DNA from: Candidatus Iainarchaeum sp.
GTDB lineage: Archaea > Iainarchaeota > Iainarchaeia > Iainarchaeales > CSSED10-239
Assembly: GCA_028700115.1 (NCBI GenBank)
Contig: JAQVTI010000011.1
Span: 1-32,000, forward strand
Reading direction: 5' to 3'
DNA length: 32,000 bases
Position numbers and translations under genes: made by a program. Every line of letters begins with the position of its first letter. Within the stretch, counting starts at the first letter, position 1. Positions 1,849 to 31,013 of this stretch are shown piece after piece. The notes below the pieces were generated by a model, which did not search any database, was not told the DNA's origin, and saw nothing but the letters and a program-made list of their open reading frames with translations.

Positions 1849-4317
1849 ATGATAAAAATTGATTTAAATAATACTAATAAGCAAGAACTTTTAAAAGTTT
1901 TAGAAAAACAAATATCTTCTCCTTCAAGATATATTATATCCCCAATAGATATTTCTATTTTAAAAAAACATAGAATTGATGTTAAAACATTTGCAAAAAA
2001 ATTAAAAGAAGTAAAAGCAAATTATACTGTTTTAAAAGGTCTTGGTTTTAAAGCAAAAACATTAAAATCAGCAGGATTTATTTTAAATGATTTAAAACAA
2101 GTAGGATTTGATGCAACTAAATTAAGAGAGCTTGATTTTAATGCACAAGAATTATATACTGCAGGATATTTGGCAAAAGATTTAAGACAAGCGGGGTATA
2201 CTGCAAGAAGACTTAAAAAAGTTGGGGTTAATTTAAAAGATTTAAAACAAGCAGGATATTTAGCTAAAGAAATTAAAAATGCAGGATATTCTGCAAAGCA
2301 AATTTTAAGTGTAGGATTTACTATTAAAGATTTAAAAAAATCTGGTTTTACTGCTTCTCAATTAAAAAAGATAGGTCTTTCTGCAAAAGAATTATATAAT
2401 GGAACATATTCTTTAATAGAACTTAGAAAAGCAAAATATTCTATTATAAAATTAAAAGAAGCAGGATTTACAGATGCAGAACTTGGGATTGTAAAAAAAG
2501 TAAAAAAAGAAAAAACTGAAAAAAAAGTAAAAAAAGTAAAAAAAGAAAAAACTGAAAAAAAAGTAAAAAAAGTAAAAAAAGAAAAAACTGAAAAAAAAGT
2601 AAAAAAAGTAAAAAAAGAAAAAAAAGAAATTATTGTTAAAACAGATTCTAAAAATAAAAAATTATTTATAATTGAAATAAATAAAGAAAATTTAAAAAAA
2701 TATAAACCAATAGAATTAATTAAAGGAAAAGTTAATGCAGAATCTTTAAAAAAGAAAAACTTTTCTGCATCTGATTTAAAAAAATTAGATTTTTCTGCAA
2801 AAGATATTTATTTTTTAGGATATCTTGTATCTGATCTTAAAAAAGCTAATTTTTCTTTGAAAGATTTTAAAGAAGCAGGAGTTTCTATTAAAGAATTAAA
2901 AGAAATTGGATATCTTCCAATTGATTTAGTAAAATTATATGATACAAATAGTATTTTATATGGAGAATTTGACGCAAAAGATTTAAAAAATGCAAAATTT
3001 AATTCAAAAAAATTAAAAGAATATGCATATACTGCAAAACAATTACATGATGCAGGATATAATTTAAAAGATCTTTTAAAGGCAAATTATAAATTTAAAG
3101 ATATTCTTGCTTTAGGATATACAATTAAAGATTTAAGGAAGCATTATACTTTAAAAAAATTATGTAATCTTGGATATTGTTTACAAGATTTTAAAGAAAT
3201 ATTTACAATAAAAGAATTAATTGATGCAAATTTTACATTACAAGAATTAATTAATGCAGAATTTGATTTAAAAGAGCTTATTAATAATTTTAAAATTAAA
3301 GAATTTTATTTAATTAATTTTTCTGCAATTAAACTTTTTGAAAATGGTGTTTCTTTAGAAGAATTAAAAGAAGCAGGATACAATATAAAAGAATTAATTG
3401 CATTAGAACCTATACAAGAACCTTTAGAAGAAAAACAAAGTTATTCTTTAGAAGAATTAAAATATATGAAATATTCTATAAGTGAACTTTTAGAAATGGG
3501 GTATACTGTTTTAGATTTAAAAAATTCAGGATATTCTGCAAAAGAATTAAAAGTAGAAGGAGTTACTTGTAGAGAATTAATTGAAGTAGGATTTGATATA
3601 AGAGAACTTCATTTTTTAGGATGTACTTTAAAATATTTTATAGAATATGGATTAAATTTAATAGATTTAAGAAATTCTGGATTTAATGCTTTAGAATTAC
3701 ATTTAGAAGGATATTCTTTATATGATCTTAGAATGGCTGGGTTTTCTGCAAAAGAACTTCTTCACATAGGATATACTGCAAAACAATACCATTCTGTAGG
3801 ATATACTGCAAAAGAACTTTATGAAATTGGATTTAGTATTTCTAGTTTAAGATTTGCAGGATATAAAGCAAAAGAATTAACAGGAATTGGAATTTCTATA
3901 AATGATTTTTATTTAGCAGGATATTTAGCTAAAGAAATGGCACAAGCAGGATATAAACCAATAGACCTTAAAGGAAATTATTCTGCAAAAGAGTTAAAAC
4001 AAGCAGGATTTGATGTTGCATCTATGAAAAAAGCAGGATTTTCTGCAAAAGAGTTATATGATGTTGGGTTTTCTGCAAGACAACTTCATTATGGTGGATT
4101 TTCTGCAAAAGAACTTTATGAAGTTGGAGTAGGTATAAGAATGTTAAAAGTTATACATTATGCTGCAAAAGAATTAAAAGAAATTGGATTTACTGCCTTA
4201 CAATTAAAAAAAATTGGATATAACCTAGAACAATTAAAAGAAGCAGGATATTCTTTTACTGAACTTAAAGATGCAGGTTTTTCTTCAGAAAAGATTAACA
4301 GACTTCCTAATAAATAG
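1849..4317 (+). CDS. 822-aa decapeptide-repeat protein (consensus L-K-x-A-G-[FY]-S-A-K-[DE]), possibly a pentapeptide-like beta-helix; no signal peptide
   Basis: SD GAGGT lies 8 nt upstream of the ATG. Residues 62-211 form 15 repeats of exactly 10 aa with no indel. Residues 300-815 hold about 50 more. The two blocks are separated by a Lys-rich linker. Confidence 0.9.
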   Translation: MIKIDLNNTNKQELLKVLEKQISSPSRYIISPIDISILKKHRIDVKTFAKKLKEVKANYTVLKGLGFKAKTLKSAGFILNDLKQVGFDATKLRELDFNAQELYTAGYLAKDLRQAGYTARRLKKVGVNLKDLKQAGYLAKEIKNAGYSAKQILSVGFTIKDLKKSGFTASQLKKIGLSAKELYNGTYSLIELRKAKYSIIKLKEAGFTDAELGIVKKVKKEKTEKKVKKVKKEKTEKKVKKVKKEKTEKKVKKVKKEKKEIIVKTDSKNKKLFIIEINKENLKKYKPIELIKGKVNAESLKKKNFSASDLKKLDFSAKDIYFLGYLVSDLKKANFSLKDFKEAGVSIKELKEIGYLPIDLVKLYDTNSILYGEFDAKDLKNAKFNSKKLKEYAYTAKQLHDAGYNLKDLLKANYKFKDILALGYTIKDLRKHYTLKKLCNLGYCLQDFKEIFTIKELIDANFTLQELINAEFDLKELINNFKIKEFYLINFSAIKLFENGVSLEELKEAGYNIKELIALEPIQEPLEEKQSYSLEELKYMKYSISELLEMGYTVLDLKNSGYSAKELKVEGVTCRELIEVGFDIRELHFLGCTLKYFIEYGLNLIDLRNSGFNALELHLEGYSLYDLRMAGFSAKELLHIGYTAKQYHSVGYTAKELYEIGFSISSLRFAGYKAKELTGIGISINDFYLAGYLAKEMAQAGYKPIDLKGNYSAKELKQAGFDVASMKKAGFSAKELYDVGFSARQLHYGGFSAKELYEVGVGIRMLKVIHYAAKELKEIGFTALQLKKIGYNLEQLKEAGYSFTELKDAGFSSEKINRLPNK
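2491..2625 (+). repeat. perfect 36-bp tandem repeat (3 full copies plus 1 diverged partial) inside the repeat-protein gene
   Basis: The unit gtaaaaaaagtaaaaaaagaaaaaactgaaaaaaaa occurs at 2491, 2527 and 2563, with a partial copy from 2599. It encodes VKKVKKEKTEKK three times. Confidence 0.95.
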
Positions 4318-7046: not shown

Positions 7047-7628
7047 ATGATTATTAAACAAATTTCTAAAAAAGAAATTAAAAATGCAGACTTATTTCAA
7101 CAGGCTATATTAAATCCAAATAAATGTAAAAGATTTAGACCTTGGTCTGTAGTTTATAAAAATTTTTTAAGAAATCCTTCTTTATTTATTGGTGCATATG
7201 ATAAAAATAAAATAATAGGAATTGTTTTTGGGTATATTAAAAAAAATAAAGTTTTATTAGGAGAAATGGCTATTTCTAATGATTATCAAAGAAAAGGTAT
7301 TGGTAGAAAACTTATTTTTGAATTTGAGAAGAATGTAAAAAAATTAAATAAAAAGTATATTGAATTAGGGGCTTTTGGATCTGCTCAAAATTTTTATTTA
7401 AATTTAGGTTATACTCCTATATTATTTGTTCAAATTTATAAAAATAAAGTTAAAAAAAATTATAATAAGTTAAATTATAATGTATTAAAAGAAACTAATT
7501 ATATTGATGCTAAGAGGTTATTTATTAAAATTGATAAATTAGATGATAAACTAAAACAAAAAGCAGAAAAAGATTTTAATGCTTATAATGTAATCTATTT
7601 ATTTAGAAAAAATTTTGATTTTGGATAA
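7047..7628 (+). CDS. GNAT-family N-acetyltransferase
   Basis: 193-aa ORF carrying the acetyl-CoA-binding motif A, QRKGIGRKLI (Q/RxxGxG/A). Confidence 0.8.
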   Translation: MIIKQISKKEIKNADLFQQAILNPNKCKRFRPWSVVYKNFLRNPSLFIGAYDKNKIIGIVFGYIKKNKVLLGEMAISNDYQRKGIGRKLIFEFEKNVKKLNKKYIELGAFGSAQNFYLNLGYTPILFVQIYKNKVKKNYNKLNYNVLKETNYIDAKRLFIKIDKLDDKLKQKAEKDFNAYNVIYLFRKNFDFG

Positions 7629-7828
7629 ATTCTAATTATATCTTCTATAATTTTTATAATTATTTTATTTTTTTCAATTTTATATAAATTTTTATTATAT
7701 CTTATTTTAGTTATTTTATTATATATTTTTTTACAATCTTTATTTTTATAATCTAAAATAATGTTTTTTTTAGTAAATATAAAGTATATTTTATTTAAAT
7801 CTTCTCTTAATATCATTTTGAAATACAT
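7595..7828 (-). CDS. hypothetical 77-aa protein, possibly the third gene of the radical SAM cassette
   Basis: Its ATG at 7828 sits in TGATATG, 1 nt after the second TGA that would end the read-through form of the SPASM gene. The sequence is low-complexity K/I/N-rich and overlaps the GNAT 3' end by 34 nt. The support is weak. Confidence 0.3.
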   Translation of the reverse strand: MYFKMILREDLNKIYFIFTKKNIILDYKNKDCKKIYNKITKIRYNKNLYKIEKNKIIIKIIEDIIRIYPKSKFFLNK

Positions 7829-7829
7829 A

Positions 7830-7922
7830 TCAATCTTTTTTTAAACAATAATCTATATTATCTAATATATTATCTTTATTTAATATATCTAATTGTATTG
7901 GACATCTTGCGCATTTTTTTCA
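7830..7922 (-). other. in-frame TGA (7920-7922) plus a 29-codon continuation that completes the SPASM cysteine motif
   Basis: The minus-strand frame reads ..IKGCPDCKL-TGA-KKCARCPIQLDILNKDNILDNIDYCLKKD-TGA. Across the stop the spacing is Cx2Cx5Cx2C-x19-C, against the canonical SPASM Cx2Cx5Cx3C-gap-C. Confidence 0.7.
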
Positions 7923-8876
7923 TAATTTACAATCTGGACAACCTTTTATTTGTTGAATTCTCCAATTTTTAAATTGTATTGAATTCCATATTTTATTTAT
8001 ATTATTCAAGTTATTTTTAATTTTGTAAGAATAATTTTTAGCAAATCTTGTATAAGGTAATAAAGGACAAGGATATGCTATTAAATTGGTAGAAATATGA
8101 TAATAATGAATTCCAGCACCGCATTTAAAATAATAATCTTTTTTATCTAATGTTTTAAAATCAGATAAATCTAGTTCTATGTTGTTTATAATGCATTCCT
8201 TATTTAATTTTTTAATAAATTTTTTATCTTTAAAAAGTTTAATAATTTCATTAGAATTTATATTTTTATTATTATTTTTTCCTCTTCCTTTAGATAATAA
8301 TGGGCCTATAATCCATTTTTTTACATTTAATTTATTTAAAAATTTAGGAAATTCTAAAATTTCTTTATAATTTTTGGAATGAATTAAAGTTCCTACAATC
8401 GTATATATTTCATCTTTTTTTAGTTGATTTAATGTTTTTAAAGTATTATTGTATATTTTTTTATTTTTTTTAATTGGATCTCTTATATATAAATGAGATT
8501 GAGGATTAGTTCCATCTAAAGATATTTTAAATGCTAATAACATTTTTGATTTTTTAATTAAATTATATTTTTTTAAAGAGAATAATCCATTTGAAGTTAA
8601 ATAATAAGGTAATTCTATATGATCTAAATATTTAATTAAATTAATAAATTTAGAATATTTTGTAGGTTCTCCACCAGATATATTGACATATAATATATTT
8701 GTTTTTTTATAATAAGCTAATATTTTTTTTAAAATATTAAATGGAATTTCTTTTTTTATAATTCCATATGATCCATAACAATGAATACATTTTAAATTAC
8801 AATCAGAAGTTATACTTATATGAACATGTAATGGTGCTTTTTTTGCAAACAATTTATCTTGGTATTTTTTATCCAT
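7920..8876 (-). CDS. radical SAM/SPASM-domain peptide-maturase-like enzyme (as annotated, truncated within the SPASM motif)
   Basis: It has the CNLKCIHC (Cx3Cx2C) cluster motif at residues 26-33, a GGEPT SAM-binding motif, and the SPASM first half CGAGIHYYHISTNLIAYPC followed by GCPDC. It has no SD of its own and starts 5 nt after the small ORF's stop. Confidence 0.9.
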   Translation of the reverse strand: MDKKYQDKLFAKKAPLHVHISITSDCNLKCIHCYGSYGIIKKEIPFNILKKILAYYKKTNILYVNISGGEPTKYSKFINLIKYLDHIELPYYLTSNGLFSLKKYNLIKKSKMLLAFKISLDGTNPQSHLYIRDPIKKNKKIYNNTLKTLNQLKKDEIYTIVGTLIHSKNYKEILEFPKFLNKLNVKKWIIGPLLSKGRGKNNNKNINSNEIIKLFKDKKFIKKLNKECIINNIELDLSDFKTLDKKDYYFKCGAGIHYYHISTNLIAYPCPLLPYTRFAKNYSYKIKNNLNNINKIWNSIQFKNWRIQQIKGCPDCKL

Positions 8877-8881
8877 TTTAA

Positions 8882-9007
8882 TTAAAATTGATTATGTGCA
8901 CAAGGTACTGTATCTGCTCTTTTTAATATATTTAATTTTATATTTTTTTTATTTATTTCTATTTTTTTTGATTCAATATTTGTTGCAATATTTGCAGTTG
9001 ACATCAT
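8882..9007 (-). CDS. 41-aa small ORF (absent from the ORF track): candidate RiPP precursor peptide MMSTANIATNIESKKIEINKKNIKLNILKRADTVPCAHNQF
   Basis: GAGGTGA SD (9012-9018) lies 4 nt upstream of the ATG at 9007. TAA at 8882-8884 lies 5 nt before the radical SAM start (8876). The peptide has a Lys-rich leader-like N-terminal part and a C-terminal ADTVPCAHNQF holding the only Cys. Confidence 0.6.
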   Translation of the reverse strand: MMSTANIATNIESKKIEINKKNIKLNILKRADTVPCAHNQF

Positions 9008-9074: not shown

Positions 9075-10832
9075 TTATCTAGCACCTGCACCTCCACCAC
9101 CCATACCTCCACCAAATCCTCCTGCTGAACCACTACTACCTGAACCTGATATAGATCCATTAGATAGTGATGTGTAGGTTATACTTGTTGTATATGTTGC
9201 TAAAAACATCATGTTTGTGGTGTTACTTGACACATTTAGGTTGTGTGCCTTGATTATTTTGTTAACTTTCTTTGCACTTCCAAAAGCAGTTGCATAAACT
9301 ATATATTTTTCCCATAAAATTACATGTCTTGGAGGATATTTTTTAATTTGAGAAAAATCTGTTATATATCTATTAAAATTCATCCATTTTAGATTAAGAA
9401 CTCTGTTTTTCTTTGTAAATCTATTACTTAAAAAAGTACTTCTATCTTTGTATACTAATTTTTGAAAAGTTGTAAATATTTTTAGATAGATGCTAATTAT
9501 AAAAATATAAATCATAGGAATTGTCATGTATGCTATTTCAGGAGCTATTAAGTTTGTTTTACTAAAAATTAATGAAATAAATATTATATATATTGCAATA
9601 TAGCCAAAAAATAATAATGAAAAATAAATATTTCCTTTTTTCTCAAATAATTCCTGTTCTGTTTTCCAGTTTTTATAATATTCAAAAATTTCTTTTTGAA
9701 CTTTTTTAAATTCTAAATCCATTACTAGATTAAATTTATTTTTTGTAAGGTTATATCTGTTGTTAATCATTTTTTTAGTTATGTAATTGTATAGTGACTT
9801 ATAAGCACTGTTTAGAATATCTATTTTTTTATTAGTTTTAATTAAAATTAAATCATCATTTTTATCTTTTTCAAAATTTAAATATTTTTGATTAACTAAA
9901 TCCATTATAATTGATCCAAACCAATATTTTGTAAATCTACCATTTGCAAAATAATTTGCTTGTATAGGATCGTGTTTAGAAGGTAAATCTCTTTCATATT
10001 CTCCAAAGTAATTTACTTCTTTTTTAGAATATTCTTTTCCAAAAAATCTCCAAATTAAATAAAAGCCAATAAACCCTATTAATGTGTATATTAATAAATA
10101 TATTTTTTTATGTTCTAGAACAAATAGACCTATGTTTAGTTTTTTTTTAAGTTTATTTTCAATTTTTAAAACATCTTTAGATGTATATTCTTTTTTATAA
10201 TTACTTTTTTGTGTAAAATATGTATTTGGAATAAGCATATTTATTTCAATATACTCATTTGATTTTACATTTTTAGAAATTGAAAGTATATTTTTACTTT
10301 CTTCTATTTTATAATTATCTTTATTAAAAACATGCATGAAATATGTTGTGTTGTTTATGTCTTCTGGAAGGATAATTTGTATATTTGTTTTTGTAGATTT
10401 ATTTGTTTTTTCTCCATATATCTTATAAAAGAATTGATGAGAATCATTAATATCTAAAATAGCATTTTCAATTGTATATTCAAAATAAGCAGTTATTTGT
10501 TCATTACTAAAATTTCCTTTTAGAATAAGTTCTTTTTCTCCAGAAATGGATTCATTTTTGTTTTTAAAAATAAACTCTGCATTCTTATCTTTTTCAATAT
10601 ACCCATTATATTCAGAAATTATTATATCATCTGGTTTTTGTATATATAGCTCTGTAAAACTGCCATTTAAGTAATAAGTTATAGCTTCATTTACAATTAT
10701 TTGTGTGTTTTCTTGTATATTATAAGTTATATTATAATTTTCTATTGAATAATATTTTGCAGAAACTTGTGGAAGAATTAAAGCTAAAGTAAATATTATT
10801 GTAATTATTAAAAATATACTTTTTTTATTCAT
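9075..10832 (-). CDS. DUF2207-like membrane protein (signal peptide, extracellular domain, TM cluster, Gly-rich C-terminal tail)
   Basis: The start is preferred at MNKKSIFLIITIIFTLALILPQVSA (10832) because it gives a canonical signal peptide. The tail is ..GSGSSGSAGGFGGGMGGGGAGAR. The family assignment is from memory of this architecture. Confidence 0.6.
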   Translation of the reverse strand: MNKKSIFLIITIIFTLALILPQVSAKYYSIENYNITYNIQENTQIIVNEAITYYLNGSFTELYIQKPDDIIISEYNGYIEKDKNAEFIFKNKNESISGEKELILKGNFSNEQITAYFEYTIENAILDINDSHQFFYKIYGEKTNKSTKTNIQIILPEDINNTTYFMHVFNKDNYKIEESKNILSISKNVKSNEYIEINMLIPNTYFTQKSNYKKEYTSKDVLKIENKLKKKLNIGLFVLEHKKIYLLIYTLIGFIGFYLIWRFFGKEYSKKEVNYFGEYERDLPSKHDPIQANYFANGRFTKYWFGSIIMDLVNQKYLNFEKDKNDDLILIKTNKKIDILNSAYKSLYNYITKKMINNRYNLTKNKFNLVMDLEFKKVQKEIFEYYKNWKTEQELFEKKGNIYFSLLFFGYIAIYIIFISLIFSKTNLIAPEIAYMTIPMIYIFIISIYLKIFTTFQKLVYKDRSTFLSNRFTKKNRVLNLKWMNFNRYITDFSQIKKYPPRHVILWEKYIVYATAFGSAKKVNKIIKAHNLNVSSNTTNMMFLATYTTSITYTSLSNGSISGSGSSGSAGGFGGGMGGGGAGAR

Positions 10833-10938
10833 AAATATCTTACTTTTATTATATAATATATGGCATATCGATTCATTTATAAACATTTCTTTGCTTGTAT
10901 ATTTATACAAGTTATAATTTGTTAAGAGGTATTTTTAG

Positions 10939-14304: not shown

Positions 14305-17300
14305 CTATTTTTTAAAATAAGATTCTTTTTTTTGTATAATATAAAAAGCACCAATAATTATAAATATATATAAAATTAACATCAAATTAGATTGTGGGCT
14401 TAAAGGTATATTAAAACCACTTGATTCACTTCCTGAATTTCCCCCTATATTTATATTCATAGGGTTTTGAGAAGTTGTACCTACAACTTTTCCATCTTCT
14501 CCTACTTGAAACATCATTCCGTCTTTAAAATCTGGATTAAATGGAATTAAATGTCCATTTTCTGTATACCAATTACCTGTGCTTGGATCATACCAAAAAG
14601 AACCATTTTTTCCTTGAGCAGAAAGTAAAGTTTCAAGTTCATCATTATATTGTAATCTTGGAACACCATCTTCTGCACTAAATTCAAAATTATGCTCTTT
14701 TCCATCTGCAGTTTTTATTATCATTCCATCTGGTGTTTCAATAATTTCATCAATTGCCTGATCAGTAATTATTTGTCCGGTTTCTTTATCAATTATTTTC
14801 ATCCTTTTTTCACATTCAGGAGGATCTCCTGTATAAAAAATAAATGTCTTTGTAGCTGTGTCGAAAATCTGGAAAGGACCAACATGTTCTAGTGCATCAT
14901 TCATTTCATCAGCTTTATTTTGAGCATCTGCACTATCTTTTTTACCTTTTACATCAAAATCTAATGCAAATTCTTCACAACCAGTTACCTCATTGTTATA
15001 ATTTACAACTTTTGTATCTAAATCTTCAATTTCAGATTGATGCATTGTATAAGTTTGTTCAACCCATAAAATATAACTATTTGTTTCTCCATTATATATC
15101 ATTTGTCCTCTTTCAAATTGAATAGCTATGTTTTGACCAACTCTTACATCTTGGTTATCAATTGGATACATTTTTGTAAATCTTTCTCCACCATAAACAG
15201 TAACTTTTGCAGCATTTCCTTTTGCTGATCTTCTAGGAACTCCTTCTGCTACAATCTCTATATTATTTTCAGATGTTTTTGGCATTATATCATATTGTGT
15301 AGTTGGGTTTGTGATATTTGTTGTTGTTAAAATTTTTGCAGAACCAAGATAATCTGTTAAAGAATTTCCTTGCATTGTAAGTCCTGTTTGTGATTCATAG
15401 TTTAGTTTAAAACAATCTAAAAATCCAACGTTTTCAATAGTTATATTTCCATAAGCATCCATTGTAAACAAAGGAACATTTGTGTCTGGAACTGGTATAT
15501 AACTTAGACTATGAGGAATTACTTTTGCAGGAATTCCTAAGTTAGTTGCAGTAAGTCTTACCCAGTCTTTGTGTTCTGAATCAATTATATTTTTAATAGT
15601 TCCATCTTCTGTTACAATTTCTATTTTTCCTTCATCTTTATCAATAACTAAAGTTTCATTTGTAGATGTATCTGTTAGATGTTCTACACCTTTGTCATTA
15701 TATGCACTTGCTCTACAAGTTGATTTTTCTCCAAGTTCAAAAAAATAAAGCATTCCTTTAACAGAAGCTGAAGTGTTTCCTATAGTTTCAAATCTAGATT
15801 GAACAATTGGGTTGTCTTTTATTTTTGTTTCTGCAAAATTTTCAACTTCTTTTGCAGCTTCACTTAAATTTTCTTTTAAAGTAGTTCCATCTGCCATGTT
15901 TGAAATATTTTTTTGAATTGCAGAAGCTCCGTTTGAAATTGCATCTCCTATTTTATTTTTAGGATCTTTTTCTATTCTTTCTTCTTCATTTTTAGAAACA
16001 AAAACATGTGTATAATAACCTTCTTCATCATCTACACAGTCTTGAACTTGTGGTGTGATTAATGTTTGAGGAATTAAATCTCCTAGAATAACTCCAAGAA
16101 TCATTCTGTGGCTTGGAGCAGAAATTGCATAATAAGCTAAATTACTTGTGATTGCAGAAACCATTCCTGCTCTGTAACTTTTTCCTGTCCATTTAGTTGT
16201 CCAACCAATAGGAACACCAATTAATTCAAGTTCATCTATTCTTTGGGAACATGTATCTCCATTATTTTTTGCATCAGTTAAAACTACTGTTTTATCATCA
16301 GTTTCTCCTGAGATTGATCCACCATAATCTGTATGATGAGAAAATGTAATTAAAGTTTTTCCTTCATCTTCTAGATTTTCTTCAGTTGTGTTTTCTAGTA
16401 AGTATGTAGGTACTGTAATTCCACCTGGAATACTATAAATTATTTGCATATCTTTAATAGGTTCTTGAGAAGAAACTTCTTCTATAGAAATATCTGTTTC
16501 TTCTAAATTTTCTTTTTGTGTTTCTAAGATCTTTTCTTTTAGAGCTGATTTTTCATAAGTTTGTTTTTCTAAAAGAGAAGAGTTTCCAAGTTTCACATAA
16601 CAATTATCATTACATCCGTAGTTTTCTGCATCTGTAAATAAAGCAACTTCATCAACTGTGCTTCTTCTAATATGTCCTTCTGTAATTTGTTTTATCCAAT
16701 CATCTACTGAATTTGTGAATTTAGAATCTACACTTTCAATTCCAAGTTTAGTCAAAGAAACCAAATAAAATAACATACTATTAAAATATTTTGAAAATAA
16801 ATCACCTTGATCAGAACCATCATTTACAAAGTAATCAATATATGCATCTTTGTAAATATCTCCATCTTCTCCGTGATTAATTAAAACTGATGTATATGTT
16901 TCTGGGATTTGATATGCACTATATTTACTTAGAGAATCTCCTATAAAAGGAAGAGATGCACCTGCTGTTTTCCATTCCCAATATGCCCAGTTTAGAGCAT
17001 ACGCATTTAGAGAATTTCCTAAAAGACTCATTGCTTGGTTTGTATGTTTCCCATTAACTGGAGCTTTCATTTGTTGGTTTATCCAGTTTATTCCTTTTCC
17101 AGAAACCCAGCCTTTATTGTTCATTACATCCATCATAGATGTATTTACTATACTTGCATCTTTAACCATTTTAGTTCCATCAGCAACATATGAATATGCA
17201 AGTTCAATTGGATCATATCCAAAATCTTTTGCATCTAATGGAGTTTCTTTTACTGGATACCATTTAAAATTTGCAAAACTTGGATCAACATCATCTAATT

Positions 17301-19296
17301 TAAAATCAGTTGCTTTTACTTGTTTCATTATTCCAGATTTATCTTGATATCCTATATAAATATTAGGGTTATTTGTATATTTGGAAAGATCTATTCTTTC
17401 TAAATATTCTCCCTTTGCCATATTAATTTCTTCTCTATAAACTGGTATTTTTTGTATTTTTCTAGTAACTCCATCAGAAAAAGTTACATCTACAGTTTCA
17501 GTTTTAACTGTTTTTGCACCCATTTCATACATACCTTTATCAGAATTATATTTAATTTCAAAAGCCTTATTTCCTCCACCAATATCTGTTATCTGTGAAG
17601 AGCTTGCTCCTGTTGTTGGTTGAACTTTGTTTGTCATAACAAGTTCTGTTTTTCCTGTAGTTGGATCTTTATAAAGTGTTTTTCTAGAAGTAATTATTGG
17701 ATTTTCATTTAAAGGTTTATCCCATTTAACAGCACTTTCTGTTAAATCATCAATTCTATTTGTTAAGTTTCTAACTTCTGTTGTTTGTTTCATTATAATA
17801 TCATAATCTGCACTTGAAAGATTTTTATAAATATCTCCTGCTTTAGAGTTTGGGTCTTCAATAATTTCTACTAATTTTTTTACAGCAGTATCATAATCTT
17901 TATTTTTTATTAAAGACTCTTGTATTGCTTGAGTCATTTTTAAATTATCTTGATATTTTTGTGCACTTTCAAATAAAACTCTTCTTTGTTGTTTTGTAAG
18001 TTTATCAAATTTTCCACCTTTTGAAAATTCTTTTGCAATTGTGTCTATATTTTTCTTTGAACTTAAAGCATTTGTATATGCTTTATATTCATCATATATA
18101 CCATATTGATCAACAACTTGTCTTATTTCTTTTTGAGTTGTTTTTAAATAACTTGTATAATTATCAATATTTTTTGAAGCATTTTTAAACTCAATTGATC
18201 TAGTTAAAGCCTTTAGAGGGTTGTCTCCTTCTGAAAGCATATTGTCAATAAATCCACCTTTTTTTGCATTTATCTTTTTAGAAATATCAAAACCTAATCT
18301 ATTTTTAGAAAAATTTCCAATATCCCCAAAAATCTTAGTTGCACCTTTCCATAAGAAAGGAGATGCTGAAGAAACAACTAAGTCTGCAGAGAAATATTGA
18401 TTAAACATTTTATCAAATAAAGAATAAACATTAATATAACAATTTTCACCTTGACAAGTAGTTTCCATACTTGCATTAAATGTTTGTGTTTTTATACTAT
18501 TTTCAATTGCATTTTCTAAAAGAACTTGAGATTTTTTCATTTCAAACTCAGTTGCATTTTCATCAAATTGAATACTTTTAATATATTCTAATTGTTCATA
18601 TGACATTTCAGAAAATATACCCATATCTTCACTAATTTCAAAATCTGCTTCTGGGTTTATTATATCTCCTGCTTCTTCTTTAATCTTATTAATACCTATC
18701 ATATCAAGCATATCTTTTCCAACAGATACAAATTCATCTTTAAAACCATTATTACCATTTTCTCTAAAAAGACCAACTTCTTCTAAATAACAAGGTTCAT
18801 TTTCATCTCCACTACATCTTCCAACTCTTAGAGTGTTTTCTAAATTTATACCATATGAAAAAGGGCCATAACATGCTTGACCTAAAAGTGCAGGCACTTC
18901 TAGAGGGTTAATTTCTTGATTTGGCATTTCTTGTTGCAGCACAACATCATTTGCCTTTGTGTCTTTATTTGTAAGTAATAAATCATTTTCTTCTAAAGTA
19001 TCTCTGTTTGTGTTTTCTTTTTGATCAGAACCAACTAAGTCTACTTTAAATCCAGAAACTAAAAGTTCATCCCATAATCTTTCTACACTTTCAGAATCTA
19101 GTTCTTGAGTAAAACACCCAGATCCAAAATCATCAATATTATTTATTTCTTCTAGATTAATAGAACAAGTTGAGTATAAAGTTTTATTTTCTTCTAATCT
19201 TGTTATATCTACATTAAATGCAAAAACTGAGTTTATAAACATTAAAAGAAAGAAAAAACTTATTAAATTAAAATATATTTTATTTTTATCAAGCAT
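14305..19296 (-). CDS. 1663-aa secreted giant surface protein with an N-terminal signal peptide and a C-terminal TM anchor; no recognisable domain
   Basis: The signal peptide is IYFNLISFFFLLMFINSVFA. The C-terminus is ..GGNSGSESSGFNIPLSPQSNLMLILYIFIIIGAFYIIQKKESYFKK. The sequence is non-repetitive, with many cysteines that often occur in close pairs. Confidence 0.9.
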   Translation of the reverse strand: MLDKNKIYFNLISFFFLLMFINSVFAFNVDITRLEENKTLYSTCSINLEEINNIDDFGSGCFTQELDSESVERLWDELLVSGFKVDLVGSDQKENTNRDTLEENDLLLTNKDTKANDVVLQQEMPNQEINPLEVPALLGQACYGPFSYGINLENTLRVGRCSGDENEPCYLEEVGLFRENGNNGFKDEFVSVGKDMLDMIGINKIKEEAGDIINPEADFEISEDMGIFSEMSYEQLEYIKSIQFDENATEFEMKKSQVLLENAIENSIKTQTFNASMETTCQGENCYINVYSLFDKMFNQYFSADLVVSSASPFLWKGATKIFGDIGNFSKNRLGFDISKKINAKKGGFIDNMLSEGDNPLKALTRSIEFKNASKNIDNYTSYLKTTQKEIRQVVDQYGIYDEYKAYTNALSSKKNIDTIAKEFSKGGKFDKLTKQQRRVLFESAQKYQDNLKMTQAIQESLIKNKDYDTAVKKLVEIIEDPNSKAGDIYKNLSSADYDIIMKQTTEVRNLTNRIDDLTESAVKWDKPLNENPIITSRKTLYKDPTTGKTELVMTNKVQPTTGASSSQITDIGGGNKAFEIKYNSDKGMYEMGAKTVKTETVDVTFSDGVTRKIQKIPVYREEINMAKGEYLERIDLSKYTNNPNIYIGYQDKSGIMKQVKATDFKLDDVDPSFANFKWYPVKETPLDAKDFGYDPIELAYSYVADGTKMVKDASIVNTSMMDVMNNKGWVSGKGINWINQQMKAPVNGKHTNQAMSLLGNSLNAYALNWAYWEWKTAGASLPFIGDSLSKYSAYQIPETYTSVLINHGEDGDIYKDAYIDYFVNDGSDQGDLFSKYFNSMLFYLVSLTKLGIESVDSKFTNSVDDWIKQITEGHIRRSTVDEVALFTDAENYGCNDNCYVKLGNSSLLEKQTYEKSALKEKILETQKENLEETDISIEEVSSQEPIKDMQIIYSIPGGITVPTYLLENTTEENLEDEGKTLITFSHHTDYGGSISGETDDKTVVLTDAKNNGDTCSQRIDELELIGVPIGWTTKWTGKSYRAGMVSAITSNLAYYAISAPSHRMILGVILGDLIPQTLITPQVQDCVDDEEGYYTHVFVSKNEEERIEKDPKNKIGDAISNGASAIQKNISNMADGTTLKENLSEAAKEVENFAETKIKDNPIVQSRFETIGNTSASVKGMLYFFELGEKSTCRASAYNDKGVEHLTDTSTNETLVIDKDEGKIEIVTEDGTIKNIIDSEHKDWVRLTATNLGIPAKVIPHSLSYIPVPDTNVPLFTMDAYGNITIENVGFLDCFKLNYESQTGLTMQGNSLTDYLGSAKILTTTNITNPTTQYDIMPKTSENNIEIVAEGVPRRSAKGNAAKVTVYGGERFTKMYPIDNQDVRVGQNIAIQFERGQMIYNGETNSYILWVEQTYTMHQSEIEDLDTKVVNYNNEVTGCEEFALDFDVKGKKDSADAQNKADEMNDALEHVGPFQIFDTATKTFIFYTGDPPECEKRMKIIDKETGQIITDQAIDEIIETPDGMIIKTADGKEHNFEFSAEDGVPRLQYNDELETLLSAQGKNGSFWYDPSTGNWYTENGHLIPFNPDFKDGMMFQVGEDGKVVGTTSQNPMNINIGGNSGSESSGFNIPLSPQSNLMLILYIFIIIGAFYIIQKKESYFKK

Positions 19297-20720: not shown

Positions 20721-21506
20721 TTAATCATTATAAATTTTACAATTTAATTTTTCTAATTCTTTTTGAGCTATGCTTTTATTAGCTGGCCAAATTGCAAAAG
20801 TTGAAGTTATTTCTAATTCAGTTTCATCTCTACCTTCTTTTGCAGTAAAAGTTAAAGGAACAGAAGAAGCATGTATATCATTTGCTTTTGAAATAACTTC
20901 TCTTATATCATTATAATTTAAAGGATCGCATAAATAATATTTTGAAAGACCCATATTTATATCATTTAATTTATAGGTTTTATTAGAATCATTTTCTGAG
21001 TTTTCAAAATCAGTTATTTTTAACATAATATATTCAAATTTTTGATCATTTGTATTATATAAATAAAAAGTAAAATCATAACTAGGAAGAGGCATCATAA
21101 CTGATTTTATTGTGTGAAATAAATTATATTTTGCAATATCATCAGGATTTGACACATCTGGATTTGGAATATCTTCATCTATTGGATTAAACATATAATT
21201 TAAATCACCAGAACCTATATGTTTATCAGGATAAAAATCTGTTTTTACTGCTGTCATTAGATAATCAATTTCTTCACTTTCAAATATGTTTTTATTATAA
21301 TCTAAAGGAATTTCTGAATAAAATATAGTTTTTAAAGCAGAATTTGAATATTCTTTAAAATATAAATTATTTATTGCAAGATCTACTCTATCTCCATAGC
21401 TTGCTGAATATTTAAAAAGCATTACAGTTAGAACTATAATTATTGTTAAGAAAAATAAAGCATCTGTAATTGCAGCTTGTGCTTTTTGTCTTTTTAATTT
21501 ATTCAT
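20721..21506 (-). CDS. pilin-like protein with class III signal peptide (261 aa)
   Basis: The N-terminus is MNKLKRQKAQAAITDALFFLTIIIVLTVMLF. It is the last gene of the pilus-like operon. Confidence 0.75.
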   Translation of the reverse strand: MNKLKRQKAQAAITDALFFLTIIIVLTVMLFKYSASYGDRVDLAINNLYFKEYSNSALKTIFYSEIPLDYNKNIFESEEIDYLMTAVKTDFYPDKHIGSGDLNYMFNPIDEDIPNPDVSNPDDIAKYNLFHTIKSVMMPLPSYDFTFYLYNTNDQKFEYIMLKITDFENSENDSNKTYKLNDINMGLSKYYLCDPLNYNDIREVISKANDIHASSVPLTFTAKEGRDETELEITSTFAIWPANKSIAQKELEKLNCKIYND

Positions 21507-21529
21507 ATTTTTTCAAAATTTATTTTTAT

Positions 21530-22087
21530 TTATTCCCATACAGCAACATATAGCCTTACAGGAACTGCATGATATTCTATTTGTAAATTAATAGGGTAAA
21601 CATAAACTAAGACTTTATGTTTTTCATCTTGGGTTTTTACTTTTGTTTTAAATTTATCTAAATTTTTAGAAGTATTTGGACAGTAAAATATATTTTGTTC
21701 TGAATTTGGATCATATATATTTTCATCTAGAACAATTATTTGTGTATTATCTTCATCATTTGTTAATAGAAATTCTAAATCTACCTCATTGTAATTATCT
21801 AAATCTTGGGGTAGGTCTATTAAAAAGGCAGTCCAGTTTCTGTTTGTGTTTACTTTATTACATATGTTTGTAAAATGATTATAATCTATTATAACTGGTT
21901 CTGATCTTAAAGTCATAGAAATATCTATTGCATCTTGATGTAAATCAAAGTTTTGAGTTTCTGTTTTATAATTATTATATGTGCTTAAAAATACTGAAAA
22001 AAAAATTAATAGACCTATGAATATAGGTATTAGACTTGGAAGATCATCCCCTATTGCACCAATATAACCTTTTTGTTTTTTTTTCAT
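21530..22087 (-). CDS. pilin-like protein with class III signal peptide (about 185 aa)
   Basis: The start is preferred at MKKKQKGYIGAIGDDLPSLIPIFIGLLIFF (ATG 22087), which overlaps the upstream gene's end by 9 nt. Confidence 0.7.
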   Translation of the reverse strand: MKKKQKGYIGAIGDDLPSLIPIFIGLLIFFSVFLSTYNNYKTETQNFDLHQDAIDISMTLRSEPVIIDYNHFTNICNKVNTNRNWTAFLIDLPQDLDNYNEVDLEFLLTNDEDNTQIIVLDENIYDPNSEQNIFYCPNTSKNLDKFKTKVKTQDEKHKVLVYVYPINLQIEYHAVPVRLYVAVWE

Positions 22088-22094
22088 ATTTAAT

Positions 22095-22763
22095 CTAACC
22101 ATTATTAGGTTCATTATATTCATTTATACAAATATCTACAGACTTACAACTTACATCTTCAAACATAGAATCATCGCAAACTATCTTTTTACATGTAAGA
22201 ATACCATTTTGTTTTGCACAAGGCAATATATAATAATTGTCTTGTCCTTCTATTTTATTTTTGATTAGAATAAGAGTAGAATCATTACTTTTTACTCTTA
22301 ATGTATCATATATTCCATAATCTTGTTTAGAACTCCAATTACTACTATTATCATATGGATGCTCTGCATTATAAAAGGTAAAATCTCCATTAAAATCTAT
22401 ATCATATGCACCATATATTTTATCTTGTTTTTGATTTAAAATAGATATGACTAGTTTTTTATTATAATTATTTTCTGGATTTTCTTTTTCAAGTTCCATA
22501 ATATTTAGGACATATGCTTTGTTAAATGTAGTAGTTGAGCTTTGTCCACTTTTAATTCTTGTTGGGATATCTATATATTTGATAGAGCAATAACTCTCAC
22601 TATCTGTAATTAATTTAATATCTCTACCTATATTATAAGCTAATTCATAACTTTGTCTAGTTTGTAGATTTGAATTTACTGTATTCATAAAAAAAAGAAT
22701 AATTGCAGCAATTGCTGTTGCAAATAAAAGCATATTAAGTTTTGATAAAGCAAATTCAAACAT
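22095..22763 (-). CDS. pilin-like protein lacking a charged leader (222 aa, Cys-rich C-terminus)
   Basis: MFEFALSKLNMLLFATAIAAIILFF begins directly with the hydrophobic segment. Seven Cys are present, six of them in the last 40 residues. Confidence 0.65.
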   Translation of the reverse strand: MFEFALSKLNMLLFATAIAAIILFFMNTVNSNLQTRQSYELAYNIGRDIKLITDSESYCSIKYIDIPTRIKSGQSSTTTFNKAYVLNIMELEKENPENNYNKKLVISILNQKQDKIYGAYDIDFNGDFTFYNAEHPYDNSSNWSSKQDYGIYDTLRVKSNDSTLILIKNKIEGQDNYYILPCAKQNGILTCKKIVCDDSMFEDVSCKSVDICINEYNEPNNG

Positions 22764-22778
22764 TTTTTAATCACTAAT

Positions 22779-23393
22779 TTATTTTTTTCTTAAAAGACAA
22801 ATTTGTATATTACTTGAATTTGTATTTGTCTTTTTAAACATTCTATATTTTCCAGGAGGAAGACCTATTGGAGATCCATCAGATGAATCTTTTGGATTCC
22901 ATACTTGCCATAAATCTTCAGATATTTCATCTTCAGATAAGCATTCATCAGGAGTTGTTGCAAAATTTATAGTTGTTGGAAGATGTGTGCAGATTGGTTC
23001 AATTGGATATTTATAATCAAAAGTATCTTTATCTTCATAAGTATATTCTAATAATAAACAACTATCTCCCCCACCACAATAAGTTCCGCATTTTCCTTTA
23101 TCATCATATGCATTAAGTCTTACATATTCATATCTTTGATTAAAACACGCTTTTGTATCTAAAGATATATTTCTAATTACTAGATCTGAGCCTAAGACAA
23201 CATCTCTTAGAGAAGAATTAAAATTACTAAGTTCTTCTTTTTTATCTCCAAGGCATGTGCTTTGTTGTAAATTTTTAAGAGCATAAGTTCCTGCTAGAAT
23301 AACAAAACCCATAATTATGATTGCAACTAGAAGTTCAAAAGGAGCACCTATTTGTGCTTTTTGTTTATTATATTTTTTTTTAACAAATATCAT
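22779..23393 (-). CDS. Cys-rich pilin-like protein with class III signal peptide (204 aa)
   Basis: The N-terminus is MIFVKKKYNKQKAQIGAPFELLVAIIIMGFVIL. There are eight Cys, including GKCGTYCGGGDSC. Confidence 0.75.
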   Translation of the reverse strand: MIFVKKKYNKQKAQIGAPFELLVAIIIMGFVILAGTYALKNLQQSTCLGDKKEELSNFNSSLRDVVLGSDLVIRNISLDTKACFNQRYEYVRLNAYDDKGKCGTYCGGGDSCLLLEYTYEDKDTFDYKYPIEPICTHLPTTINFATTPDECLSEDEISEDLWQVWNPKDSSDGSPIGLPPGKYRMFKKTNTNSSNIQICLLRKK

Positions 23394-23429
23394 ATTATAA
23401 AGATAGTATAAAGTATTAAAAAAACTTTT

Positions 23430-23481
23430 GTTTTTATTTAGAAAAACAAGAAAAAGAAAATAGTTTAAAATAAACTATTTT
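23430..23481 (-). terminator. AT-rich hairpin plus T-rich tract after the mini-pilin gene
   Basis: aaatagttt (23458-23466) pairs with aaactattt (23472-23480). On the minus strand it is followed by TTTTCTTTTTCTTGTTTTTC. It lies in the 87-nt gap before the next pilin-like gene. Confidence 0.35.
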
Positions 23482-23678
23482 TATTCAGAAGTTACTGTTT
23501 GGTTTGGAAGATTTGCTTTTTGAGAAGACGCTTTTACTGATTTATTAAACATAGGCTTAACTACTGCAATTAGAATAATTGCAATAATTGCAACAATTAT
23601 TATCATAAATATAGAATTTGACTCACCTTGAGCTTTTTCTTCATTTATGAATTTAATAAATTCTTTTTTTAATCTCAT
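23481..23678 (-). CDS. 65-aa mini-pilin (class III signal peptide plus a short tail)
   Basis: MRLKKEFIKFINEEKAQGESNSIFMIIIVAIIAIILIAVVKPMF..; the predicted mature part is only about 49 aa. Confidence 0.7.
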   Translation of the reverse strand: MRLKKEFIKFINEEKAQGESNSIFMIIIVAIIAIILIAVVKPMFNKSVKASSQKANLPNQTVTSE

Positions 23679-23707
23679 ATCTTCTCAAAAACCATTTTTA
23701 ATTAAAT

Positions 23708-24238
23708 CTATATTTTCTTAGGGAAAATTACACAAACTGTGGCATCTGTTTCTCCAAACTCTTCATATGTGTCTAATTCTACTAAATCATAATCATTAAT
23801 AATTTTAATTAGAGAGTTAGAACTATCTGCACATAAAATACCAAATTTAAATTTTGTATTTTCAGAACTTTTCATTTTTAAAGTCTTTCCAGTTGTATAT
23901 GTATCACTAGAACCAATTGCAAAGAAATTATCATTTCCTGCTATGTCAAAATATACTTGATTAGAATCAATTCCAGTTCCTGCAACTATTGAAGATGTTG
24001 AAACAAATTCAGTGTTTTTTGAAGAAACTTTTACTTCGTCTGTATAAGCTAAATTCCCATAATTAGAAACTTGTGTTTTTAGAGTTGTATTAATTGAATC
24101 AGTTACATCTCCACCAATATTTATGTTTTTTGTAATCATTGGAAGAAGTACTCCTAAAATTGCAAGAGCAACAACAGCTGCAATTAATAATTGAAATGTA
24201 GAAAAGGCTTGTCCTTTTTCTTTTAATTTATTAAACAT
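23708..24238 (-). CDS. candidate major pilin with class III signal peptide (176 aa)
   Basis: The N-terminus is MFNKLKEKGQAFSTFQLLIAAVVALAILGVLL. It has the best SD in the locus (AGGAGG, 7 nt upstream) and follows a 110-nt intergenic gap. Confidence 0.8.
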   Translation of the reverse strand: MFNKLKEKGQAFSTFQLLIAAVVALAILGVLLPMITKNINIGGDVTDSINTTLKTQVSNYGNLAYTDEVKVSSKNTEFVSTSSIVAGTGIDSNQVYFDIAGNDNFFAIGSSDTYTTGKTLKMKSSENTKFKFGILCADSSNSLIKIINDYDLVELDTYEEFGETDATVCVIFPKKI

Positions 24239-24245
24239 TTTTTTT

Positions 24246-24251
24246 CCTCCT
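24246..24251 (-). promoter_or_regulatory. Shine-Dalgarno site (AGGAGG) of the candidate major pilin
   Basis: Plus-strand cctcct at 24246-24251, 7 nt from the ATG at 24238. Confidence 0.6.
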
Positions 24252-24348
24252 AATAAAAAATTAAATAACTTTTTTTATTAAATATAATATATAACTAATA
24301 TTAAAGAAAATCAAAACTTATTTAAATATTTTTATTTTCTTCATTTTC

Positions 24349-24846
24349 TTAAATTATTAGATAAATGTAATTTATTGTGTAAGTAATTATACTTGGAATA
24401 ACTAACATAAATATGATGTCTCTTAATTTAATATGTGTATCTATTTCATTATATTCTATTATGTTTGAATTATATTTACTTTTAGAATATTTTATTTTTT
24501 TATTTAAAACTAATAAGTTCCAAAAAGTTCCAAATAAAACCGCATTAATTACCCAGACTAAGATAATTTTTGTAATTGGATTAACTATTTTATTTATTAA
24601 ATTCCAAGATATTAAAGTTATAAAAATACTTAAAAAACTAGAAAATAACATATAAAAAAACAATTTAAAATTTTTATTTGCAAAAAGATAGAGTCCTTTT
24701 GTAAAAAACATACTTATTATAAAAAATATTGTCATTAAAGCTATAATTATACCTATAACTAAAAGAATAATTGTACCAAACAAATAACCACAAACTAGAA
24801 TAATTATTGCAAATAAAAAATATTTTAATGTGTTTTTTAAATTCAT
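24349..24846 (-). CDS. 165-aa polytopic membrane protein within the pilus-like operon
   Basis: It has 4-5 hydrophobic helices and starts 2 nt after the upstream pilin-like gene's stop. No GxGD or Asp motifs are present, so it is not a prepilin peptidase. Confidence 0.65.
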   Translation of the reverse strand: MNLKNTLKYFLFAIIILVCGYLFGTIILLVIGIIIALMTIFFIISMFFTKGLYLFANKNFKLFFYMLFSSFLSIFITLISWNLINKIVNPITKIILVWVINAVLFGTFWNLLVLNKKIKYSKSKYNSNIIEYNEIDTHIKLRDIIFMLVIPSIITYTINYIYLII

Positions 24847-24848
24847 AT

Positions 24849-25379
24849 TTAATTGCCTTCCTTATATATTTCATCAGGAGCATTTTTGTTTAGAAATAAA
24901 ACAATAAATTTTTCACAATCCTCTGTGTTTTTTTCTAATAAATTATAAATACTAGAAGGTTCATCTGAATTTGAGATATTACAATAAATAGTTACATCCA
25001 TATCTAAGTTTCTTTCAGTAATTTCATAAATTAATTCATTTGATTCTGCAATAGGTTCAATTCCTGGACCATTATCTATACCTATACATCCTTTTTCAAT
25101 ACCAGTTATTCCAGAAATCCATTCTTTTGAAATTGTGCCCTTTAATTTTAAATCTTCAATAATATATTTACTTTGTGTACTTATTCCAGGAGCTTTACTT
25201 GCAGAAATAATTCCTTCTTCTAATTTTTGTTGACTAATAATAATTGCTTTATTATTAATATTTCTAACCATTACTAAAATAATAGAAAGAATAGCAACAG
25301 TTATTACAAAAGCAATTAAAAGTCTAAAAGATTCTTCAGCTTGAGCTTTTTGTTTTTTTGTAAATAAATTAAAATCCAT
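24849..25379 (-). CDS. pilin-like protein with class III signal peptide (176 aa)
   Basis: The N-terminus is MDFNLFTKKQKAQAEESFRLLIAFVITVAILSIILV. An 11-nt gap follows the platform gene. Confidence 0.75.
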   Translation of the reverse strand: MDFNLFTKKQKAQAEESFRLLIAFVITVAILSIILVMVRNINNKAIIISQQKLEEGIISASKAPGISTQSKYIIEDLKLKGTISKEWISGITGIEKGCIGIDNGPGIEPIAESNELIYEITERNLDMDVTIYCNISNSDEPSSIYNLLEKNTEDCEKFIVLFLNKNAPDEIYKEGN

Positions 25380-29816: not shown

Positions 29817-31013
29817 ATGGAAATAAATAAAACAGAAATAGGAGTTTGTGCATTTGGACTAAAAACAGGTATTATTACTTTTGATGATAATATGAAAGAT
29901 GTTGTTAAAAAATATTTTGACAAAAATAAAAATATATTAAATAATAAAGATATTTTATGTATGACAGAAGCAGTTGTTGCAATTACTCAAAAAAATTTTG
30001 TAAATTTAGAAGATGTATCTATAGAAATTAAAAATAAATTAAATTTAAAAGAAAATTCTACAATTGGAATTGTTTTTCCAATATTTTCAAGAAATAGATT
30101 TTCAATGATTTTAAAAGCAATTGCAAAAACAGTTCCTTTAGGAAAAGTAATTATTCAATTATCTTTCCCAAGAGATGAACAAGGTAATCCTATACTTTCT
30201 AAAGATTTTTGTATAGATAATAATATTACTTTAGACGAAAAATTAGATTTAAAAAAATTAGATAATTTAGGAAAAAGATATTTGCATCCAGAAACAGGTA
30301 TGGATTATATTGATTTTTATAAACAAATTGTAGAAAAAGAATCAAAAAATGTAGAAATCTATCTTGCAAATAAACTAAATTACATAATTAATTCAAAACC
30401 AGATGGAATTATTTGTTGTAATGTTCATAATAGACAAAATATTTTAAATGAAATTAAAAAATTAGGTTATAAAAATATAATTACTTTACAAGATATTTGT
30501 TCTAATTCTTCTAAAAAAGAATATTCAGAATATGGACTTTTGGGGTCAAATATATTAGATCCAGAAAAAAATATATTAAAACTTGCTCCAAAAGATGGAG
30601 ATTTATTATGTGAAAATATTAAACAAATGATATTTGAAGAATTTGATAAAGATATAGAAGTATTAATATATGGAGACGGTGCCTATAAAGATCCAGAATC
30701 AGGAATATATGAACTTGCAGATCCAGTTTCATGTTTTGGATGTACAAAAAATATTAAAAATAAAAATAAAACAGGTGTTAAATCAAAATATTTAATGCAA
30801 AAACTTTATAGTCAAGGAAAAAATAAAAAAGAAATATTAGAATTTATAGAAAATGAAAAACAAAGAGTTTTAAAAGAAAATAATAAAAATGATTTTTCAT
30901 CAGAAGGAACAACTCCACGAAAAATAGAAAATTTAATATCTTCTCTTGCAGATTTAATTTCTGGTTCTGCTGATTCAAATACTCCTTTAGTTTTAGTTAA
31001 AAATTATCTTTAA
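29817..31013 (+). CDS. CofE-like (F420-0:gamma-glutamyl ligase family) protein, 398 aa
   Basis: Three segments align by eye with A. fulgidus CofE. NKDILCMTEAVVAITQKNFVNLEDV matches DGDVLVVCSTVISKAEGR. GLLGSNILDPEKNILKLAPKDGD matches NAGIDASN..LLLPPLDPD. SGSADSNTPLVLVKN matches GEGGDGIPAVVVRG. The protein carries large insertions relative to CofE. Confidence 0.5.
   Translation: MEINKTEIGVCAFGLKTGIITFDDNMKDVVKKYFDKNKNILNNKDILCMTEAVVAITQKNFVNLEDVSIEIKNKLNLKENSTIGIVFPIFSRNRFSMILKAIAKTVPLGKVIIQLSFPRDEQGNPILSKDFCIDNNITLDEKLDLKKLDNLGKRYLHPETGMDYIDFYKQIVEKESKNVEIYLANKLNYIINSKPDGIICCNVHNRQNILNEIKKLGYKNIITLQDICSNSSKKEYSEYGLLGSNILDPEKNILKLAPKDGDLLCENIKQMIFEEFDKDIEVLIYGDGAYKDPESGIYELADPVSCFGCTKNIKNKNKTGVKSKYLMQKLYSQGKNKKEILEFIENEKQRVLKENNKNDFSSEGTTPRKIENLISSLADLISGSADSNTPLVLVKNYL

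Follow-up and report, generated by a model that had tools for sequence, protein, structure and literature searches.

The in-frame TGA that interrupts a radical-SAM gene of Candidatus Iainarchaeum, a genus within the DPANN phylum Iainarchaeota, is probably a real Arg319-to-stop nonsense substitution of recent evolutionary origin. The gene lies on the minus strand of the 32-kb stretch of DNA analysed here (we refer to this whole stretch as the window), in a genome with about 22% GC; in 2-kb intervals along the window, GC content is about 17-29%. The 318-aa product that ends at the TGA is identical to NCBI MDD3976187.1, annotated as 'radical SAM protein [Candidatus (I)ainarchaeum sp.]'. The stop falls inside the cysteine motif of a SPASM-type domain, and the original prediction for this site had proposed that it could be a very recent nonsense mutation, an assembly or sequencing error, a leaky stop, or a selenocysteine codon. 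The first of these options is the one that our analysis supports, given that an Arg codon is a single substitution away and that the TGA is found in three assemblies. The features of the locus are the following.

7047-7628, plus strand: GNAT acetyltransferase gene, convergent, overlapping the 3′ end of the partner gene
7595-7828, minus strand: conserved partner gene, 77 aa, 42-50% identical to the partners at orthologous loci
7830-7832, minus strand: native TGA of the full-length gene, at a position that matches the orthologue stops (TGA or TAA)
7833-7919, minus strand: orphaned tail KKCARCPIQLDILNKDNILDNIDYCLKKD, 29 codons, carrying C322, C325 and C344
7845-7847, minus strand: C344 of the tail
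7902-7904, minus strand: C325 of the tail
7911-7913, minus strand: C322 of the tail
7920-7922, minus strand: premature in-frame TGA, codon 319 (the plus strand reads 'tca')
7923-8876, minus strand: radical-SAM/SPASM gene up to the premature stop, 318 codons, PF04055 match with E 1.5e-15
8882-9007, minus strand: precursor-like peptide, 41 aa, MMSTANIATNIESKK...VPCAHNQF, immediately 5′ of the radical-SAM gene

The minus-strand translation of 7824-8876 reads ...IKGCPDCKL*KKCARCPIQLDILNKDNILDNIDYCLKKD*YV, in agreement with the predicted layout of a radical-SAM ORF that ends in ..IKGCPDCKL-TGA and is followed by 29 in-frame codons up to a second TGA. The TGATATG overlap proposed between this second TGA (7830-7832) and the start of the next ORF is also present, and the ATG of the partner gene (7826-7828) begins 1 nt past the native radical-SAM stop. 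The GNAT gene is a conserved neighbour at several of the orthologous loci.

Other regions of the window have features of their own. At 1849-4317 (plus strand), decapeptide repeats make up nearly the whole of an 822-aa protein (11 stretches that match Pfam PF25296 'Decapeptide', E 4e-166), which also carries a tandem insert, KKVKKEKTEKKV, rich in lysine. At 14305-19296 (minus strand) there is an ORF of 1,663 aa, a very large one in a tiny genome of 22% GC. Seven consecutive ORFs of 165-261 aa, all on the minus strand (20721-25379), match nothing in Pfam at E <= 0.001; next to them is a protein of 746 aa that weakly matches DUF2207_C, and there is a clear DUF2207 protein at 9075-10910. Finally, 29817-31013 (plus strand) encodes a homologue of the F420-0:gamma-glutamyl ligase (CofE-like, PF01996), whose 398 aa compared with the 218 positions of the model suggest a large insertion or duplication.

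The 29 codons past the stop

We compared the read-through sequence, a 348-aa query with an X at the stop, to about 5.8 billion proteins. The search reports five clusters of orthologues (P0002-P0006) of 340-345 aa with 47-61% identity, covering 95-100% of the query. The alignment of these five clusters runs without interruption across the stop, with the consensus CKL-R-(N/D/S)x-C-x-RCP(I/V)Q.D.L....(I/V)(D/G).C. Searches at the DNA level add four more uninterrupted orthologous loci (L014, L015, L018 and L019), which also have an Arg at the position of the stop. The tail by itself, when aligned to the last 27 residues of P0005, has 22 identities (81%, E 1e-11). Thus, the claim that the downstream 29 codons complete a SPASM-type cysteine motif stands, as they align to the C-termini of orthologues, and so does the argument that cysteines with this spacing would not arise by chance. 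As for the spacing itself, the C-x2-C-x5-C-x2-C proposed across the stop is what we observe, and the last gap needs to be corrected from x19 to x18: the full arrangement is C313-x2-C316-x5-C322-x2-C325-x18-C344.

Judging from these alignments, the 29-codon tail is the real C-terminus of the radical-SAM protein. The opposite view, in which the tail is a coincidental extension of a protein that naturally ends at ..CKL, is ruled out because the orthologues read through, and none of those aligned stops at that point.

The same comparison identifies the residue that the TGA replaced. All the orthologues found (nine loci, from at least six lineages) have Arg at the stop position, and none has Cys or Trp. 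Among more distant relatives with 31-34% identity, which have the same Cx2Cx5Cx2C...C layout, the position is occupied by Phe or Leu. The Arg codon is AGA in L006, L011, L012, L014, L015, L018 and L019, and CGA in L002-L005 and L007-L009. By orthologue alignment, then, the ancestral residue at codon 319 is Arg. The comparison at this codon was one that the original prediction had pointed to, and its result does not agree with the ancestral TGG or TGT/TGC codons that the prediction had in mind. A TGA is one substitution away from either AGA or CGA, and in the window's own genes 187 of the 198 Arg codons are AGA and only 2 are CGA, so that a change from AGA to TGA is the most likely event.

Artefact, reassignment and selenocysteine

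Can we be sure that the stop is in the genome? The identical TGA appears in three assemblies, all of them metagenome assemblies that trace to two MAGs and may have a sampling site or library type in common. One is the window contig. The second (L001) is contig JAQUYT010000047.1 of another MAG, GCA_028691725.1, which over 6,161 aligned nt differs from the window by one SNP. The third (L010) is a 4,118-nt contig from an independent Logan assembly of SRR22315503, which is 100% identical over its 4,118 nt. The sole SNP relative to L001 happens to be inside the truncated radical-SAM gene, at window position 8087 (plus strand; AAT to TAT, N264Y), and the residue sits between the two N-terminal auxiliary-cluster cysteines of the protein.

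An error of sequencing or assembly at this site would mean that the gene is intact and that the codon is in truth AGA or CGA. Two observations are favorable to an artefact: the TGA is directly next to an A7 homopolymer (TTA TGA AAA AAA TGC), and every sequence at hand is a contig of a metagenome assembly. On the other hand, the same base is present in two NCBI MAG contigs that have different contig breaks and are one SNP apart, and again in the Logan assembly; the change is a substitution, whereas homopolymer errors are typically indels; and a comparison with about 15 billion proteins yielded no intact allele that is more than 61% identical. Exact-pattern scans for other strains, with NNN at the codon, returned 0 matches in JGI metagenomes and GTDB genomes. 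Since the same TGA recurs in three assemblies from two MAGs, an assembly error is unlikely, and we regard the artefact as quite improbable overall.

Another way in which the TGA could be harmless is for the genome to read it as sense, either by a genome-wide reassignment (genetic codes 4 or 25) or by means of a suppressor tRNA. The extreme AT richness of this genome (about 22% GC) is of the kind found in lineages with a reassigned TGA. The codon counts point in the opposite direction. In the 29 ORFs of the window, with 9,364 codons, there is only one in-frame TGA, and codon 319 is the sole in-frame stop of any kind, versus 507 TGA triplets in the other frames; Trp is encoded by TGG 58 times. 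Moreover, four of the 29 genes end at TGA (17 end at TAA and 8 at TAG), and they include the native stop of the radical-SAM gene, where the orthologues have TAA or TGA. In this genome, TGA terminates genes in the ordinary way. The counts exclude codes 4 and 25 for the window, and we see practically no room for a reassignment or a suppressor.

The selenocysteine reading, which would give CxxCxxUxxCxxC, is suggested by the context of the TGA, in frame and within a Cys-rich metal-binding motif, just as in selenoprotein genes. Radical-SAM selenoproteins do exist in bacteria, and the NCBIfam model 'radical SAM (seleno)protein TrsS' weakly matches this protein, in the radical-SAM core only. The resemblance ends there. 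As a rule, the homologues of a selenoprotein have a Cys in place of its selenocysteine; here all nine orthologous loci have Arg, the distant relatives have Phe or Leu, and Cys never occurs. Within the x5 spacer, codon 319 comes third, and it is not a cluster ligand.

Nor does the window have the RNA signals or the machinery for selenocysteine. The SECIS element is located in the 3′UTR in archaea, and directly past the UGA in bacteria. No 3′UTR is available here for an archaeal-type SECIS, because the partner gene begins 1 nt past the native stop and has its own 3′ end overlapped by the convergent GNAT gene. A SECIS-like hairpin in the 3′ region had been put forward as a signature to look for; Rfam reports nothing at the gathering threshold, and nothing relevant around the site at E <= 10, and the folds of the RNA downstream of the TGA do not depart from those of shuffled sequences (z = -0.01 for 161 nt, and z = -0.41 for 366 nt). 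ARAGORN finds no tRNA genes in the 32-kb window, hence no tRNA-Sec in it, and SelB, SelD, PSTK and SepSecS are all absent from the Pfam-scanned ORFs of the window. Among archaea, selenocysteine is not known to be used outside Methanococcales, Methanopyrus and some of the Asgard archaea, a set that does not include this lineage. With Arg in the orthologues, no SECIS and no 3′UTR, we reject selenocysteine, to which we assign next to no probability.

Loss of the C-terminal cysteines and age of the stop

What would the truncation do to the enzyme? The radical-SAM motif CX3CX2C (SDCNLKCIHCY, 8778-8801) provides C26, C30 and C33, and the PF04055 match (58 bits against a cut-off of 29.5) places the protein in the radical SAM superfamily, whose members use this motif to bind the 4Fe-4S cluster for SAM cleavage in a partial TIM barrel. 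The SPASM motif has been described as CX9-15GX4C-gap-CX2CX5CX3C-gap-C, with seven Cys that bind two auxiliary clusters (PMC6231123). Seven Cys of this type are present here only when the gene is read across the TGA. Four are kept in the truncated protein, C252 (8121-8123), C270 (8067-8069), C313 (7938-7940) and C316 (7929-7931), and the other three, C322, C325 and C344, are in the tail. There is no single uninterrupted ORF with a complete SPASM domain, due to the TGA at codon 319. The block across the stop, Cx2Cx5Cx2C, is a variant common to all orthologues and to the relatives with 31-34% identity.

Profile models give a mixed picture of this domain. The Pfam SPASM model scores about 15 bits (cut-off 21.5) for the truncated and the read-through forms alike, so it does not discriminate between them, and it does not match the orthologues. 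The NCBIfam alignments to the SPASM families NirJ2, AhbD, TIGR04133 and MftC span the stop end to end; for NirJ2, read-through residues 22-347 align to model positions 6-325 of 326. None of the named NCBIfam radical-SAM/SPASM families, which include TIGR04133, NirJ2, MftC, AhbD and PapB, reaches its cut-off, and the best score is 80 bits for TIGR04133, whose cut-off is 425. An AlphaFold (AF2) model of the orthologue P0005 (pLDDT 84.7, pTM 0.86) has Foldseek fold matches to SuiB (TMq 0.73), anSME (0.70), CteB, PqqE and SkfB, with SkfB at the top by E-value. The predicted fold, by its matches to SuiB, anSME, CteB and PqqE, lends support to a SPASM-type domain.

Compared with the radical-SAM/SPASM maturases SuiB, anSME, CteB and PqqE, for which there are solved structures, and with MftC, our protein has the same CX3CX2C core and, read across the TGA, seven Cys in what is probably the same kind of C-terminal auxiliary-cluster domain. 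It differs in that its scores are far below the NCBIfam cut-offs and place it in no defined family, in having Cx2Cx5Cx2C in place of Cx2Cx5Cx3C, in the absence of a fused N-terminal RRE, and in the stop that interrupts the domain past the second Cys of the motif.

A sequence-profile search of the PDB aligned the radical-SAM core only, thus we assigned cysteines to clusters from motif order and the literature. The Aux I ligands of anSME are C255, C261, C276 and C330 (PMC6231123), which means that the final Cys of the CX2CX5CX3C block serves Aux I, and that the remaining Cys serve Aux II. With this assignment, we infer that the truncation would remove C322 and C344 from Aux II and C325 from Aux I, and would leave both auxiliary sites incomplete. 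Given the loss of these three ligands, the truncated enzyme is probably inactive or strongly impaired.

It is formally possible for the four retained Cys to make a Twitch-like remnant. Twitch enzymes have one Cys around the beta-hairpin and two after helix alpha2′ (PMC6231123), and in a layout that resembles that of the Twitch enzymes BtrN, SkfB and MoaA, the four Cys kept here comprise one on either side of the beta-hairpin and a CX2C past the helix. A Twitch domain, however, has evolved as a stable domain for a single cluster, whereas these four Cys would be what is left of a SPASM site for two. If the anSME ligands are assigned by elimination, the two Cys of the CX2C would belong to Aux II and not to Aux I, and all the orthologues of this particular enzyme keep the full seven-Cys domain.

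The proposed sequence of events starts with a single base change, most likely AGA to TGA (A to T in the coding strand, at plus-strand position 7922), with CGA to TGA as a possibility. Termination at codon 319 would then result in a 318-aa product without C322, C325 and C344. Ribosomes would also halt 90 nt ahead of the partner ATG, which is normally 1-5 nt past the radical-SAM stop. The partner is probably translationally coupled to the radical-SAM gene, and the coupling would probably be lost, with a presumed polar effect on the partner.

The mutation appears to be recent, as far as the coding sequences can tell. None of the three Cys of the tail has been lost, its RCPIQLD block is preserved, and the native stop still adjoins the ATG; the peptide gene on one side and the partner gene on the other are also intact. 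The tail is 52-82% identical to the orthologues, which is at least as high as the 47-59% of the gene upstream of the stop. When P0006 serves as outgroup, a Tajima-type relative-rate test assigns 20-30 unique changes to the window lineage versus 39-44, that is, no acceleration, for a protein whose closest orthologue is 61% identical. Neither the relative-rate test nor the comparison of tail and body identity has any sign of long-term relaxed selection. In these respects the gene is similar to nascent pseudogenes of reduced, AT-biased genomes, in which one substitution makes a stop while the ORF is undecayed and the neighbours are intact. We see no difference in mechanism; the particularity here is that the stop falls in a metal-binding motif, where it mimics a recoding site.

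A preserved tail in a preserved cassette fits equally well a mutation that is very young and one that is tolerated via read-through. The leaky stop, under which near-cognate tRNAs (Trp, Cys or Arg) would read through to make some full-length SPASM enzyme, and the cassette would function at a reduced level, draws on just this preservation: the 29 codons with their three Cys are intact, as are the native stop, its adjacency to the partner ATG, and the peptide and partner genes. In yeast, read-through of UGA inserts Trp, Cys and Arg (PMC4150775), and here the insertion of an Arg would restore the wild-type residue. We consider a leaky stop unlikely all the same. None of the orthologues has a stop at codon 319, hence this is not a conserved recoding site; there is no stimulatory RNA structure downstream, by the same z-scores of -0.01 and -0.41; TGA terminates other genes normally; and a very young mutation equally predicts an intact tail. 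In a more speculative version, to which we give little credence, near-cognate read-through at a useful rate, possibly re-inserting Arg, would make the TGA tolerated, and the stop would act as an attenuator that produces a short Twitch-like form together with the full SPASM form.

Two other routes to a functional product were considered and ruled out. A split gene with the tail translated separately fails for lack of a start codon, as neither ATG, GTG nor TTG occurs in the tail. A slip on the A7 run, whether by the polymerase or by the ribosome, fails because the frame is the same on either side of the stop, and the run is downstream of the UG. A recent nonsense substitution is the reading with which we proceed.

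The peptide, enzyme and partner cassette

In DPANN archaea, the radical-SAM gene occupies the central place in a conserved cassette of three genes: a peptide of 41-57 aa, the radical-SAM/SPASM enzyme, which is predicted to modify peptides, and a partner of 77-86 aa that always comes next and starts 1-5 nt past the radical-SAM stop. Neighbours at the orthologous loci include TBP, L21e, AglB/STT3 and LSM. A literature search did not find a description of such a peptide, radical-SAM and partner cassette in DPANN archaea.

One orthologous locus (L018, Ga0074198_1000002) has the cassette on a metagenome contig of 976,691 nt, which may be a near-complete DPANN genome. This contig should be useful for the study of the cassette in an intact host.

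In the window, the peptide ORF is 5 nt upstream of the radical-SAM gene, in the arrangement of RiPP-type precursors, which are encoded adjacent to the enzyme. Homologous peptides are found at every orthologous locus, and with the relatives at 31-34% identity. They share an N-terminal segment M(I/M)STAAIA.NTESKK, and they all end in an invariant C-x-x-N-Q-[Y/F/H] followed by the stop. The peptide genes outside the window are at the following locations, the last four of which are approximate.

Locus L002: 7861-7986
Locus L006: 4934-5059
Locus L007: 456-596
Locus L011: 179-304
Locus L012: 184-309
Locus L021: around 2842
Locus L022: around 27
Locus L023: around 424
Locus L030: around 2796

No Pfam or NCBIfam model matches either the peptide or the partner. 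From their sequences and their position, the peptides look like an undescribed family of precursors, of a RiPP or of a peptide-derived cofactor, in low-GC DPANN-type archaea.

For the partner, a single-sequence AF2 model predicts a beta3-alpha2 fold (pLDDT 69), and its best Foldseek matches are to the RRE-bearing ThcOx and McbB, with non-significant E-values of 0.25-0.5. The 77-aa partner of the window has no Pfam match to PqqD. Based on the predicted fold, the partner may be an RRE-like stand-alone protein for peptide binding or recognition. An adjacent gene for a small peptide together with a separate small partner is reminiscent of PqqA/D/E and MftA/B/C. The cassette of the window differs in not being a member of those families.

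When an in-frame TGA falls within a cysteine motif, it can pass for a selenocysteine codon or a site of recoding. Here, with Arg as the ancestral residue by orthologue alignment, it would be a plain nonsense mutation. For annotation, this means that the 318-aa 'radical SAM protein' in public MAGs merits a flag as truncated or as a pseudogene. The cassette with its invariant C-x-x-N-Q-[Y/F/H] peptide motif is a more useful by-product of this analysis than the stop codon itself. Should the TGA be tolerated by read-through, an attenuated enzyme would mature a previously undescribed C-x-x-N-Q-Y/F peptide family. In the case of a recent nonsense substitution, which we favor, the peptide-modification cassette of this population is probably disabled.
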